A DNA stretch of 64,000 bases from Escherichia coli. Lineage in GTDB: Bacteria; Pseudomonadota; Gammaproteobacteria; Enterobacterales; Enterobacteriaceae. The position numbers and the translations under genes are program-made. The stretch is from assembly GCF_002854065.1 (NCBI RefSeq), contig NZ_CP024147.1, one strand, 5' to 3'. Shown here piece after piece: positions 2,990 through 42,520 of this stretch (positions are counted from its first letter, which is position 1; every line of letters starts with the position of its first letter). A model generated the notes under the pieces. The model had not been told where the DNA came from, did not search any database, and saw only the letters and a list, made by a program, of their open reading frames with translations.

Positions 2990-3111
2990 GCAGGTGAATG
3001 CAACGTCAAGCGATGGGCGTTGCGCTCCATATTGTCTTACTTCCTTTTTTGAATTACTGCATAGCACAATTGATTCGTACGACGCCGACTTTGATGAGTC
3101 GGCTTTTTTTT
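2990..3111 (+). ncRNA. fnrS: FnrS small regulatory RNA (FNR-activated, Hfq-dependent)
   Basis: Sequence GCAGGTGAATGCAACGTCAAGCGATGGGCG...CTTACTTCCTTTTTTGAATTACTGCATAGC... ending in hairpin GCCGACTttgatgAGTCGGC plus T8; lies in the zntB-dbpA intergenic region, where fnrS maps in K-12. Confidence 0.8.
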
Positions 3112-4873: not shown

Positions 4874-5809
4874 TTATTTCACTTCAACCACATTCAGCCG
4901 TAACTCATCCAACTGATTTTCATCTTCTTCTGGCTGCCAGCCCGCCGGTTGTAGTGGGATCTCTTCGCGATCAAACGCCAGATCACCCCCGTTAACCACT
5001 TCAGAACCGTGGGTGATGCCTTTGAAATCGAACAGGTTGGTATCGCACAGATGCGACGGCACCACATTCTGCATCGCGCTGAACATCGTCTCGATACGCC
5101 CTGGATAACGTTTATCCCAGTCACGCAACATGTCAGCAATCACCTGACGTTGCAGGTTAGGCTGTGAACCGCACAGGTTGCACGGAATAATGGGGAACGC
5201 TTTTGCATCGGCAAATCGCTGAATATCTTTCTCGCGGCAGTAGGCCAGCGGACGAATAACGATATGTTTGCCATCATCGCTCATCAGTTTCGGAGGCATA
5301 CCTTTCATCTTGCCGCCGTAGAACATATTTAAGAACAGCGTCTGCAGGATATCGTCACGATGGTGACCCAGCGCGATCTTCGTCGCCCCCAGTTCCGTTG
5401 CGGTACGATAAAGAATACCGCGACGAAGGCGAGAACACAGTGAGCAAGTGGTTTTGCCCTCTGGAATCTTCTCTTTCACGATACCGTAAGTGTTCTCTTC
5501 AACAATCTTGTACTCAACGCCCAGCTTTTCAAGATACTCGGGCAGAACGTGCTCCGGGAAGCCCGGTTGCTTTTGATCGAGGTTAACAGCCACCAGCGAA
5601 AAATTGATTGGCGCGCTTTGCTGCAAATTGCGCAGAATCTCCAGCATGGTATAGCTGTCTTTACCCCCGGAGAGGCAAACCATGATGCGATCGCCTTCTT
5701 CAATCATATTGAAGTCAGCAATGGCTTCGCCCACGTTACGACGCAGGCGTTTTTGTAATTTGTTCAGGTTGTATTGTTCTTTCTTGCTAATTTCTTGATT
5801 TTGCGACAT
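4874..5809 (-). CDS. ttcA: tRNA 2-thiocytidine(32) synthetase TtcA
   Basis: 311-aa ORF with PP-loop SGGKDS and Cys-X-X-Cys motifs. Confidence 0.92.
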
Positions 5810-6559: not shown

Positions 6560-7693
6560 TTAGAACTGATAAACCAGACCTAAAGCGACAATATCATCGG
6601 TAGAGATGCCGTTGGCAGCGTAGAAACTGTCATCTTCATCCAACAGGTTGATTTTATAGTCAACATAAGTGGACATGTTTTTATTGAAATAGTAAGTCGC
6701 GCCAACATCGGCGTATTTAACCAGATCTTTATCATCAACACCTGCCGGGTTGTCTGCACCACCGGCAGCGTGCAGGTCACGGCCTTTAGACATCAGGAAA
6801 GAGACTGCCGGACGCAGACCAAAATCAAACTGGTACTGTGCAGTGACTTCAAAGTTCTGGGTTTTGTTCGCAACTGCATAATCGCTGTCGCCAAACGGGG
6901 TCATATTACGCGTTTCTGAATACATGGTTGCCAGGTAAATATTGTTAGCATCGTATTTTAGCCCAGCAGTCCACGCGTCTGCTTTATCACCACCCGCCGC
7001 AGTATGGTTAACCTGGTCATTGGTGCGGTCAGAAGAGGTGTATGCCGCACCAGCGCTAAAGCCCATGCCTAAATCATATGTTGTGGAAAGACCCCAGCCG
7101 TCACCGTTTTCATGGCGAACATCACGTCCGTTGTTGGTGCCTTCCTGACCATTACTGGCACCTTCGTTGTTACCTTGATACTGCACCGCGAAGTTCAGAC
7201 CATTTACCAGACCGAAGAAATCAGTATTACGATAAGTCGCGACGCCATTGGCACGACCAGTCATAAAGTTGTCTGCATTGGTATAAGAGTCACCGCCAAA
7301 TTCAGGCAGCATATCGGTCCAGCCTTCGATGTCGTACATTACGCCATAATTACGTCCGTAATCGAAAGAACCGTAATCTGCAAATTTCAGTCCGGCAAAT
7401 GCCAGACGGGTCCATGACTGGTTTTTTGAAGATTCAGTGTTGTTTGCCTGAATATTGTATTCCCATTGACCGTAGCCAGTAAGTTGATCGTTAATTTGGG
7501 TTTCGCCTTTAAAACCCAGACGCGCATAGCTCTGGTCGCCATCTTTCGCTGAATTATCAGAAAAATAATGCAGGCCATCAACTTTGCCATACAGATCTAA
7601 TTTGTTGCCGTCTTTATTATAAACTTCGGCTGCATGTGCAGCACCTGCGGCGATCAGGGCAGGAATTAAAAGTGCCAGTACTTTGCTTTTCAT
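6560..7693 (-). CDS. ompN: Outer membrane porin OmpN
   Basis: 377-aa ORF with signal peptide [21 protein letters not shown], porin beta-barrel features and C-terminal ...LVYQF. Confidence 0.9.
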
Positions 7694-7920
7694 TGAATAA
7701 ATCCTTTAGTTATTTTATTTGCCTTTTATCCCCATTTCGGGGAGTGAAAACATCCTAAAGGAGAAGTTCAGTTAGCCGATAAATATCATTTGTTACGCCT
7801 TAAGTAAAACCTTAATCAAATAATTCCTCTGAAATGATAATAAGTCTGGTGAATGTATCGAAGATAATACATACAAAATAAAAATTATACTTTTTATTTT
7901 CTATACGTTATTCTGCGCGG

Positions 7921-8029
7921 GTTATATGCCTTTATTGTCACAGATTTTATTTTCTGTTGGGCCATTGCATTGCCACTGATTTTCCAACATATAAAAAGAC
8001 AAGCCCGAACAGTCGTCCGGGCTTTTTTT
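7921..8029 (+). ncRNA. micC: MicC small RNA (Hfq-dependent repressor of ompC)
   Basis: Sequence GTTATATGCCTTTATTGTCACAGATTTTATTTTCTGTTGGGCC... ending in GCCCGAACAGTCGTCCGGGC plus T7; sits in the ompN-pfo intergenic region, divergent from ompN. Confidence 0.85.
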
Positions 8030-8057
8030 AGAATTGGATAATCCTTATCCAGAGCAT

Positions 8058-11000
8058 TTAATCGGTGTTGCTTTTTTCCGCTTTTCCGGCCATTTGTGCC
8101 AGGAAGTCATAGCGTTTTTGCAAATCAGCTGCAGCATCTTTCCATAACTGTTCTGCCACTTCTGGCTGCTGCGAATTCAGACGACGGAAACGTTGCTCGT
8201 GAAGTAACGTTTCTTCCAGTGCTTCTGACGGCGGGCGTGAATCCAGCGCCAGCGGCAGTTTGCCTTCATCGGCACGACGCGGATCGAAGCGATATAGCGG
8301 CCAGAAGCCGGTAGCTGTGAGTTGGCGCATCTGGTCATGGCTGAGTGCCAGATCGTAACCATGCTCTTCACACGGGCTATAAGCAATGATCAGCGATGGT
8401 CCCGGATACGCTTCCGCTTCCTGAATCGCTTTCACCGTCTGGTTCAGTTGCGCGCCGAGAGAAATCTGCGCCACATAAACATGACCGTACATCATCATAC
8501 TGACGCCAAGATCTTTACGCGCTTTACGTTTGCCGTGCTCGCCAAATTTAGTTACTGCACCCAGCGGTGTCGCTTTCGACGCCTGACCACCGGTGTTGGA
8601 ATAGCATTGCGTATCCAGCACCAGAATGTTGACGTTTTCCGTCAAACTCAATACATGATCCAGACCGCCAAAGCCGATATCGTAAGCCCAGCCGTCGCCA
8701 CCAATCAGCCAGATTGATTTTTCTACCAGTGCATCTGCGTCACGCAGCAGTTCATGTGCTTCGGCAACATCGTTGAGTTGCTGGCGTAAAGCTGCGACCT
8801 GTTCTCGACGAACCTCTGGCGTAGCGTCTGATTTCAACGCCGTCAGTAATTCCGCCGGGATTTTATCGGCAAATTGATCCAGCAGACGCAGCACGCGGAC
8901 ACGGTGTTGATCGACCGTCAGGCGGAAACCAAGGCCAAATTCGGCATTATCTTCAAATAGAGAGTTCGCCCATGCCGGCCCACGACCGTTGGCATCGGTG
9001 GTATACGGTGTAGAGGGCAGGTTACCGCCATAAATTGAAGAACAGCCGGTGGCGTTAGCGATCAACATCCGGTCGCCATAGAGCTGAGTCAGCAATTTAA
9101 TATACGGCGTCTCGCCACAACCGGAGCAAGCACCGGAATATTCAAACAGCGGTGTAATCAGCTGCGATGTACGAATATCAATACGTTCCAGTTTGCTACG
9201 GTCTATTTCTGGCAGGTTGAGGAAGAAATCGTAATTGATTTTCTCTTCTTCGACATGTTCCAGGCGAGACATCATATTGATGGCTTTAATCTCTGGATTC
9301 TGACGGTCTTTCGCCGGGCAAACTTCGACGCACAGGTTACAACCGGTGCAATCTTCCGGTGCCACCTGCAAGACATATTTCTGCCCGCGCATATCACGCG
9401 ATTTCACATCCAGCGAATGCAGGCTGGCAGGGGCGTTTTCCATCGCTTCAGGCGGCACCACTTTTGCGCGAATAGCTGAGTGTGGGCAAGCGGCAACGCA
9501 GTGGTTACATTGGGTACAGAGTTCCTCTTTCCAGATGGGGATCTCTTCGGCGATATTGCGTTTTTCCCAGCGTGTAGTGCCCATCGGCCAGGTGCCGTCT
9601 GGCGGCAGCGCCGAAACGGGGAGGGCATCACCAAGCCCGGCGAGCATCGCAGCGGTTACGGTTTTCACGAAATCAGGGGCGGCATCGGAAACCACTGGCG
9701 GTCGATTGGCGCTGTGCGGATTTACCGGTTGCAACGGAACTTCTTCTACGGATTCACGCGCCAGCGCCAGAGCCTGCCAGTTGCGCTCCACCAGATCCTG
9801 GCCTTTGCTACTGTAACTTTTGGCAATCGCACCCTGCAATTCTGCGAGGGCGCTATCGCCAGGCAGAATTTGCGTCAGATGGAAAAAAGCCATCTGCATG
9901 ACGGTATTAATACGGGCCGCCAGGCCACATTCGCGGGCGATTTTCGCTGCGTTAATCACATAGAAGCACGCTTTTTTCTGGTTTAACACGGCCTGAACTT
10001 CTTGCGGCAAGCGCGACCACACTTCATCTGCGCTGTACGGCGTGTTGAGCAGGAAAATGCCGCCAGGTTTTAAACGCTCAGCCATCTGATATTTATCGAT
10101 AAACTGCAACTGGTGGCAGCCAACAAAATCAGCCTGGGAAATGAGATAAGCGGAACGAATCGGCTGTTCGCTCACTCGAAGGTGAGAAACCGTCAGACCG
10201 CCCGCCTTTTTGGAGTCGTAAACAAAATAGCCCTGTGCGTACCACGGCGTGGAATTACCGATAATCTTGATATTGTTTTTGGTCGCGGAAACGCTGCCAT
10301 CACTACCAAGGCCATAAAACAAGGCTTCCAGTTTCGCCGAGTTTGGCAGGGTGTTTTCCGGCAACGGCAGTGACAGATTGGTCACATCATCGTAAATACC
10401 AACCGTAAAGCGCGCTTTCGGTTTAGCCGCGTTGAGCTCGGCAAATACCGCCAGTACACAGTCCGGGCCAAATTCTTTGGATGAAAGACCATAGCGCCCA
10501 CCAATGACACGGGGCAGAGTTTCGCGCTCGCCATTATTAAAGGCTTCTGCCAGTGCGGTCATTACATCCAGATAGAGCGGTTCTGCCTGGGCACCGGGTT
10601 CTTTGGTTCTGTCCAGTACCGCTACGCTGCGTACGGATCCCGGCAGAGCTTGCAGCAAGTGTTTGGCGGAGAAGGGACGGTACAGGCGAACTTTCAGCAC
10701 GCCAACTTTTTCGCCACGGGTTAGCAATTCATCAACCACTTCTTCACAGGTGCCAATGGCAGAGCCCATCAGGATAATCACCCGTTCCGCTTGCGGATGC
10801 CCGTAATATTCAAACGGCTGATACTGACGACCTGTCGCGGCAGAGAAATCATTCATCGCCTGTTCAACATGGTCATAGACCGCGTTGTACCATGGGTTGG
10901 TGGCTTCGCGAGACTGGAAATAAGTGTCAGGATTGGCGGACGTACCGCGGATCACCGGATGTTCCGGGTTGAGCGCCCGGGCGCGATGAGCATCAATTTC

Positions 11001-11582
11001 GGCCTGCGGCATGAGATCAAGAATAGTGTCATCGGCCAGCGGGACAATTTTATTGATTTCGTGGGACGTACGGAAACCATCAAAGAAATGAATAAATGGC
11101 ACGCGGCTTTTCAGCGTCGCGATGTGCGAAATGAGAGCAAAGTCTTGCGCTTCCTGGACGTTTGCCGCACACAACATCGCGCAACCCGTCTGGCGCACCG
11201 CCATGACGTCGGAATGATCGCCAAAAATAGAGAGTGCATGTGTGGCAACGGTACGTGCCGCTACATGCAGGACAAACGGTGTGAGTTCGCCTGCCAGTTT
11301 GTACAGCGTCGGGATCATCAGCAGCAAACCCTGCGATGACGTAAACGATGTTGAAAGGGCACCCGTCTGCAAAGCGCCATGCACGGTAGCGATAGCACCC
11401 GCTTCCGACTGCATTTCAACCACGCGTGGTGTGTCTCCCCAAACGTTCTTCAAGCCGTTTCCGGCCCAGGCATCAGCCTGTTCTGCCATCGTGGAACTGG
11501 GGGTAATAGGGTAGATGGCGATAACTTCACTGGTGCGAAACGCCACCGAAGCAACCGCGCCATTACCGTCAATAGTAATCAT
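8058..11582 (-). CDS. pfo: Pyruvate:flavodoxin oxidoreductase (PFOR family)
   Basis: 1174-aa ORF with 4Fe-4S ferredoxin cysteine clusters (CTQCNHCVAACP, CTGCNLCVEVCP) and a TPP-binding domain; recognised as YdbK. Confidence 0.92.
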   Translation of the reverse strand: MITIDGNGAVASVAFRTSEVIAIYPITPSSTMAEQADAWAGNGLKNVWGDTPRVVEMQSEAGAIATVHGALQTGALSTSFTSSQGLLLMIPTLYKLAGELTPFVLHVAARTVATHALSIFGDHSDVMAVRQTGCAMLCAANVQEAQDFALISHIATLKSRVPFIHFFDGFRTSHEINKIVPLADDTILDLMPQAEIDAHRARALNPEHPVIRGTSANPDTYFQSREATNPWYNAVYDHVEQAMNDFSAATGRQYQPFEYYGHPQAERVIILMGSAIGTCEEVVDELLTRGEKVGVLKVRLYRPFSAKHLLQALPGSVRSVAVLDRTKEPGAQAEPLYLDVMTALAEAFNNGERETLPRVIGGRYGLSSKEFGPDCVLAVFAELNAAKPKARFTVGIYDDVTNLSLPLPENTLPNSAKLEALFYGLGSDGSVSATKNNIKIIGNSTPWYAQGYFVYDSKKAGGLTVSHLRVSEQPIRSAYLISQADFVGCHQLQFIDKYQMAERLKPGGIFLLNTPYSADEVWSRLPQEVQAVLNQKKACFYVINAAKIARECGLAARINTVMQMAFFHLTQILPGDSALAELQGAIAKSYSSKGQDLVERNWQALALARESVEEVPLQPVNPHSANRPPVVSDAAPDFVKTVTAAMLAGLGDALPVSALPPDGTWPMGTTRWEKRNIAEEIPIWKEELCTQCNHCVAACPHSAIRAKVVPPEAMENAPASLHSLDVKSRDMRGQKYVLQVAPEDCTGCNLCVEVCPAKDRQNPEIKAINMMSRLEHVEEEKINYDFFLNLPEIDRSKLERIDIRTSQLITPLFEYSGACSGCGETPYIKLLTQLYGDRMLIANATGCSSIYGGNLPSTPYTTDANGRGPAWANSLFEDNAEFGLGFRLTVDQHRVRVLRLLDQFADKIPAELLTALKSDATPEVRREQVAALRQQLNDVAEAHELLRDADALVEKSIWLIGGDGWAYDIGFGGLDHVLSLTENVNILVLDTQCYSNTGGQASKATPLGAVTKFGEHGKRKARKDLGVSMMMYGHVYVAQISLGAQLNQTVKAIQEAEAYPGPSLIIAYSPCEEHGYDLALSHDQMRQLTATGFWPLYRFDPRRADEGKLPLALDSRPPSEALEETLLHEQRFRRLNSQQPEVAEQLWKDAAADLQKRYDFLAQMAGKAEKSNTD

Positions 11583-41492: not shown

Positions 41493-41557
41493 AAAGAAAA
41501 CGCCTGTACTAAAACCGACCCGTGGTACAGGCGAAGAATACGGGTCTACATCGGAAG
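41493..41557 (-). ncRNA. rydC: RydC small RNA (Hfq-binding)
   Basis: Minus strand reads CTTCCGATGTAGACCCGTATTCTTCGCCTGTACCACGGGTCGGTTTTAGTACAGGCGTTTTCTTT, recalled as RydC with its pseudoknot-forming repeats; lies between cybB and ydcA. Confidence 0.75.
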
Positions 41558-41972: not shown

Positions 41973-42122
<150 letters not shown>

Positions 42123-42520
42123 AGCCTTTCTCCTTGCCGGATGGCGGGTAAGAGGCTAACATCTGAATTGCTTGGTTCATTCGTTGGCCTCGGTTGATAG
42201 AAATATCGGTCGGGGCCTTCGTCTTTCTGATTCCCGGTTAGCCTGAAAACAGAAAGTCTCAGGCACCCGTGAGCATCCTATGTGGTTTCCTTAGGGACGA
42301 AAATAATCACCTGACGAAATTGCGTGCTGTTTTCCAGAATTTTTCGTCATTCGGGTTAGCCAGTTTAACCATTCGTTACTCTCTTCATTCCAATGGCATT
42401 AATCTTCTCTGCAATAATTGTTGTAAAAATGTGACGCAAAGAGGCTTTTAGTCGTAAGTAATTACCGTCAAATGCCGATGACTATCTATCAGGAGTAAAC
42501 CTGGACGAGAGACAACGGTA

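Follow-up and report, generated by a model that had tools for sequence, protein, structure and literature searches.

The MicC small RNA gene and its promoter region between ompN and pfo in an Escherichia coli genome

The DNA separating the porin gene ompN from its neighbor pfo raises a simple question: does it carry an RNA gene in this Escherichia coli strain, and if it does, where does the RNA begin and end, and what would it act on? An earlier note on the 64,000-nucleotide stretch analyzed here (the window) had assigned positions 7694 to 8029 to the small RNA (sRNA) MicC, placing it on the strand opposite to ompN with a terminator of its own and naming it as a trans regulator of ompC. Our analysis leaves us nearly certain that positions 7921 to 8029 (plus strand) are E. 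coli micC, encoding an Hfq-dependent sRNA that pairs with the ompC leader and lowers OmpC. Within this statement, the family identity, the identity to K-12, the gene neighborhood, the conservation of structure, and the complementarity between seed and target come from the present work. Expression, Hfq dependence, OmpC repression, H-NS repression of the common promoter region, and OmpR control are points taken from the literature.

MicC at this position is already known and does not depart from the published picture. It was reportedly described in 2004 by Chen et al., it is curated in Rfam, and it is annotated in K-12, and the locus therefore carries little weight as a discovery. What is gained is a set of exact boundaries (sRNA at 7921 to 8029, promoter region at 7694 to 7920) and a K-12-like allele in the window's strain. 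MicC is of wider relevance for antibiotic permeability, through the amount of OmpC; a 2026 preprint also links it to the host fitness of extraintestinal pathogenic E. coli (ExPEC) (bioRxiv 10.64898/2026.07.27.741068).

Family identity and boundaries of the sRNA gene

With gathering thresholds applied, Rfam 15 gave four matches in the full 64 kb of the window. The match to RF00121 (MicC) spanned 7918 to 8038 on the plus strand and covered model positions 1 to 123 of 123; its score was 125.4 bits (gathering score, 90; E = 1.9e-19). The earlier note had staked its MicC assignment on a covariance-model hit, and the hit lies above the gathering score. A rescan of 7600 to 8100 with permissive filters returned no second family above threshold and left the MicC result unchanged. 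Two low-scoring candidates in the rescanned region, Leu_leader (20.4 bits; gathering score, 50) and Thr_leader (18.9 bits; gathering score, 55), overlapped the hairpin of the terminator, and we dismissed both as look-alikes of a terminator. The 21-nt 5' end of MicC occurs once in the window, at 7921 to 7941, versus 0 occurrences expected by chance.

The comparison with K-12 points the same way. The record of K-12 MG1655 holds the noncoding RNA micC (b4427) between ompN (b1377) and ydbK (b1378), which is the equivalent position, and the intergenic regions are 99% identical. The two sequences do not differ between 7921 and the end of the terminator stem; the window's T-run has 7 T, versus 9 T in K-12, and this longer T-run accounts for the 111-nt length of the K-12 RefSeq micC feature. 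Apart from the T-run, the ompN-pfo intergenic region differs from K-12 only by substitutions at 7895 (-26) and 7900 (-21), both in the micC promoter spacer and upstream of the RNA. A 551-bp query (7600 to 8150) was matched in 5,412 of 5,426 complete E. coli genomes, in two of them at 100%. RefSeq records there name the genes flanking micC ompN and nifJ, and the sRNA itself is left unannotated by PGAP in them.

The other three Rfam matches lie elsewhere in the window. A full-length FnrS sRNA (RF01796; 134.8 bits; gathering score, 60), another known Hfq-dependent sRNA, occupies 2990 to 3107 (plus strand). On the minus strand, RydC (RF00505; 92.5 bits) was found at 41494 to 41557 and the sok antitoxin RNA (RF01794; 111.5 bits) at 42117 to 42268, about 560 bp from RydC. 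The sok match implies a chromosomal hok/sok-type toxin-antitoxin locus beside rydC.

The genes on either side of micC were identified from their open reading frames (ORFs). ompN (6560 to 7693, minus strand) encodes a 377-aa quiescent porin of the OmpC family and is transcribed away from micC. Its ORF scored 593 bits against NCBIfam model NF007841 (porin OmpC subfamily; cutoff, 484), and RefSeq applies the label "porin OmpN" in a strain that is 100% identical over the 551-bp query, which takes in just the first ~94 bp of ompN. On the other side, pfo, also called ydbK or nifJ (8058 to 11582, minus strand), is convergent with micC and encodes an 1,174-aa pyruvate:ferredoxin (flavodoxin) oxidoreductase (1,629 bits against TIGR02176; cutoff, 911). 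ORFs, domain models, and the RefSeq and K-12 annotations thus agree in placing micC on the plus strand, opposite to ompN and inside the ompN-pfo intergenic region, as had been claimed.

The boundaries given previously can be refined. The interval 7694 to 8029 runs from one base past the ompN start codon to the final T of the MicC T-run. Read directly, it consists of an AT-rich stretch followed by GTTATATGCCTTTATTGTCAC... and then by a GC-rich hairpin (AAGCCCGAAC AGTC GTCCGGGCTT) and TTTTTTT. It does contain MicC, but the sRNA occupies just 7921 to 8029 (plus strand; 109 nt up to the last T of the T-run); the remaining part, 7694 to 7920, or about two thirds of the interval, is promoter DNA without RNA. 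The RNA's conserved start, together with a -10 hexamer at the correct spacing, puts the probable 5' end at 7921, and the 3' ends are expected to scatter inside the T-run.

Two further ORFs were noted on the ompN side of the locus. A 40-aa ORF with a GTG start (7636 to 7758, plus strand) overlaps the start of ompN and was set aside as a mechanical ORF without support. At 4874 to 5809 (minus strand), the window has an intact 311-aa ORF in the position of ttcA (annotated as ttcA by RefSeq in the identical strain). In K-12, the cryptic prophage Rac ends at this spot, which also has a fragment of the pseudogene ttcC, and Rac therefore appears to be absent from this attachment site in the window's strain.

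Conservation of the RNA and its terminator

To follow the locus across species, species-representative genomes were scanned as plain DNA with a seed pattern. This yielded 30 loci from Escherichia, Citrobacter, Salmonella, Superficieibacter, Pseudocitrobacter, and two metagenome-assembled genomes (MAGs). In the alignment of the 30 distinct sequences, the 5' 21 nt were invariant, the middle of the RNA was variable, and the terminator stem was invariant. The invariance of the seed is not independent of the search, as the pattern fixed 19 of the 21 5' bases; information on conservation comes from the two bases left free, from the central stem, and from the terminator. Four homologues were shorter, at 100 to 103 nt: two from Superficieibacter (L005 and L015), one from an Enterobacteriaceae MAG (L024), and one from Pseudocitrobacter (L028). 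They have the same seed and terminator, and their central region is different and unalignable to the central stem of E. coli and Citrobacter.

The OmpN and Pfo proteins of the window served as tblastn queries against the surroundings of the 30 loci. A convergent pfo was present 117 to 146 bp from the MicC 5' end at each locus having downstream sequence, and most loci had a divergent OmpN-type porin about 224 to 294 bp upstream of MicC. No OmpN-type porin was found (tblastn E value, 1e-10) in the ~4.3 kb upstream at L023 (Salmonella enterica arizonae) or in the ~3.1 kb upstream at L029 (diarizonae), both of which have micC and the convergent pfo. The pairing of porin and sRNA is therefore not universal.

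The structure that we evaluated was the Rfam consensus mapped onto the window sequence. Overall, 92.5% of cells were paired in the 30 sequences, and the covariation score of 0.153 was higher than in all 500 shuffles and in every slid control, the slid controls being a comparison in which a mapped consensus is favored. In the central stem-loop (7955 to 7989, plus strand; stem 7955 to 7961 with 7983 to 7989 in the Rfam consensus structure), both partners had changed in five of the seven pairs, and 83% of cells were paired across the 30 species sequences; the four shorter homologues supply most of the unpaired cells in these counts. RNAalifold, applied to the MAFFT alignment of the 30 sequences, recovered the terminator and not the central stem. 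Folding 7921 to 8029 as a single sequence gave no significant result (z = -1.75, a level also reached by 14 of 200 shuffles), and in the structure of minimum free energy the seed was paired and not free. Single-sequence folding was set aside as evidence in either direction.

The RNA ends in a Rho-independent terminator (8001 to 8029, plus strand), in which 8001 to 8010 form a hairpin with 8015 to 8024 and the T-run of 7 T occupies 8023 to 8029. The 10 positions of the hairpin stem comprise nine pairs and one A.C mismatch (8008/8017), and 8 of the 10 are invariant across the 30 loci. The mismatch is confined to the window/K-12 type and L031 (Escherichia sp.); an A-U pair takes its place in the remaining 28 of the 30 aligned sequences. 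The proximal face of Hfq binds a 3' U-tail of ~7 nt or more at a Rho-independent terminator, and the 7 T that follow the hairpin at 8001 to 8024 give MicC this feature of Hfq-dependent sRNAs.

A simple terminator scan made no plus-strand call at the MicC hairpin, owing to the A.C mismatch. On the minus strand, a G.T wobble stands in place of the mismatch, GTCTTTTTAT follows the hairpin, and the scanner calls a terminator 34 nt past the pfo stop codon. This makes it plausible that the hairpin acts as a bidirectional terminator common to the convergent micC and pfo. MicC does have the terminator attributed to it, from the hairpin to the last T at 8029, although it may not be exclusively its own. 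Read-through of pfo at such a common terminator could yield an antisense RNA to MicC.

The same minus-strand call could be read in another way, namely, that the hairpin and T-run are the bidirectional terminator of pfo/ydbK and that the ~80 nt upstream are untranscribed spacer, the remnant of a silent or decayed micC allele. The two promoter-spacer substitutions and the T-run shorter than that of K-12 would fit such decay, and micC is strongly repressed by H-NS under standard conditions (PMC5745476). Yet the RNA-coding part is base for base that of the experimentally characterized K-12 gene, and the -10 hexamer and the block at -46 to -31 (see below) are intact and conserved across genera. The seed and the central stem are kept across species with compensatory changes, which argues for selection on the RNA, and the locus is near universal in E. 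coli. We consider a silent allele extremely improbable.

Promoter region shared with ompN

The 227 bp at 7694 to 7920 (~28% G+C) form a common AT-rich region for the divergent promoters of ompN and micC. They are the exact 227-nt fragment of Dam et al., whose primers SD3 and SD4 match both ends. Dam et al. cloned this fragment as the promoter region of ompN-lacZ and micC-lacZ fusions (PMC5745476). In an hns mutant, the micC and ompN fusions were derepressed about 11-fold and 6-fold, respectively, and both were induced by beta-lactams and by sigmaE depletion, with no sigmaE core motif in the ompN-micC intergenic region (PMC5745476).

We aligned the 110 bp upstream of the RNA start from the 30 loci (Escherichia, Citrobacter, Salmonella, Superficieibacter, and Pseudocitrobacter). 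Two elements stood out on the plus strand. The hexamer TATTCT at 7909 to 7914 (-12 to -7) is kept in most of the loci and is the probable -10 element of micC. Farther upstream, a near-invariant 16-bp block, AAAATAAAAATTATAC, lies at 7875 to 7890 (-46 to -31 of micC) between variable flanks in the 30 upstream regions. The block is more highly conserved across the five genera than the -10 hexamer, and the DNA between the two is variable. From its position and from general knowledge of promoters, AAAATAAAAATTATAC may combine a proximal UP-element-like A-tract with a weak -35 element (TTATAC, 18-bp spacer), or it may be a regulator-binding site. A scan for strict consensus promoters did not call the micC promoter.

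Other conserved blocks in the intergenic region are GTGAATG at 7849 to 7855 and CTTAA..AATAATTC at 7811 to 7828. Together with AAAATAAAAATTATAC, these upstream blocks might form the operator of a putative regulator that controls micC jointly with the quiescent ompN, a proposal that we regard as a long shot. If true, a dedicated regulator of this kind would explain the published coinduction of micC and ompN by beta-lactams and sigmaE depletion. A promoter-like site on the minus strand (7861 to 7834) was considered as a candidate for ompN; one such site was found versus 1.8 expected in shuffles, and we make no claim for it.

Pairing with ompC and relation to known systems

As ompC lies outside the window, we used the K-12 ompC leader as a stand-in. 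Its 150 nt show at least 99% identity in 5,358 of 5,371 E. coli genomes, which makes it a usable proxy. The 5' seed of MicC (nt 1 to 22; 7921 to 7942, plus strand) is complementary to the leader of the ompC mRNA: RNAduplex paired MicC nt 1 to 22 with ompC positions -47 to -14 at -26.5 kcal/mol. Two helices, of 15 bp and 6 bp, make up the duplex, and the mRNA strand forms an internal loop between them. Shuffles of the 30-nt MicC 5' end gave a mean of -13.6 (standard deviation, 2.5), and none of 1,000 was as good as the native sequence.

This computed pairing matches the "22-bp duplex near the start codon" already published. MicC, 109 nt long, is described as forming a 22-bp duplex close to the start of ompC and as inhibiting the binding of 30S (PMC5745476, after Chen et al. 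2004); its association with Hfq and its lowering of OmpC are described for K-12 (PMC5745476, after Zhang et al. 2003 and Chen et al. 2004). OmpC is also downregulated by MicC in ExPEC strain UTI89 (bioRxiv 10.64898/2026.07.27.741068). The trans regulation of ompC named in the earlier note is thus backed here by the seed duplex, with the repression itself being a published result (PMC5745476, after Chen et al. 2004).

These observations are consistent with the following course of events. A promoter of its own, lying in the 227-bp AT-rich region, would drive micC, and transcription would end at the intrinsic terminator, giving an Hfq-dependent sRNA of ~109 nt. The single-stranded 5' end of this sRNA (nt 1 to 22) would then pair in trans with the ompC leader, at a site immediately upstream of the ribosome-binding site. 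This pairing would block 30S binding and leave the cell with less OmpC porin.

It is possible, though in our view rather unlikely, that the RNA is MicC and that an important part of its action in E. coli lies beyond ompC, on mRNAs for motility, chemotaxis, or metabolism, or through targeting of coding sequences with RNase E. In the 2026 preprint, deleting micC in ExPEC UTI89 is reported to have phenotypes independent of OmpC, but the same source calls OmpC "its only known target," with no direct non-ompC target validated in E. coli (bioRxiv 10.64898/2026.07.27.741068). The precedent for coding-sequence targeting is in Salmonella, where MicC pairs at codons 23 to 26 of ompD and acts via RNase E (PMC3333887). 

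The closest relative is K-12 MicC (micC b4427, RF00121). The window shares with it the ompN-micC-ydbK/pfo locus and its strands, the 22-nt ompC-complementary seed, and the A.C mismatch in the terminator; unlike K-12, it has a T-run of 7 rather than 9 T and the substitutions at -26 and -21. The MicF/ompC pair (RF00033 type) offers a parallel in arrangement. There too, an sRNA gene is divergent from a porin gene and represses another major porin in trans, by pairing of its 5' end near the ribosome-binding site, and the intergenic region is AT-rich and bound by H-NS (PMC5745476). The two sRNAs differ in RNA family, in sequence, and in target (ompF for MicF and ompC for MicC), and the porin next to MicF is a major, expressed one, whereas ompN, next to MicC, is quiescent. 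Salmonella MicC (L023 and L029) resembles the window's MicC in its 5' 21 nt, its terminator, and the convergent pfo. It differs in having a diverged central region, in lacking an OmpN-type porin within 3 to 4 kb upstream (arizonae and diarizonae), and in having an extra target, ompD, which it recognizes inside the coding sequence and subjects to RNase E-dependent decay (PMC3333887).
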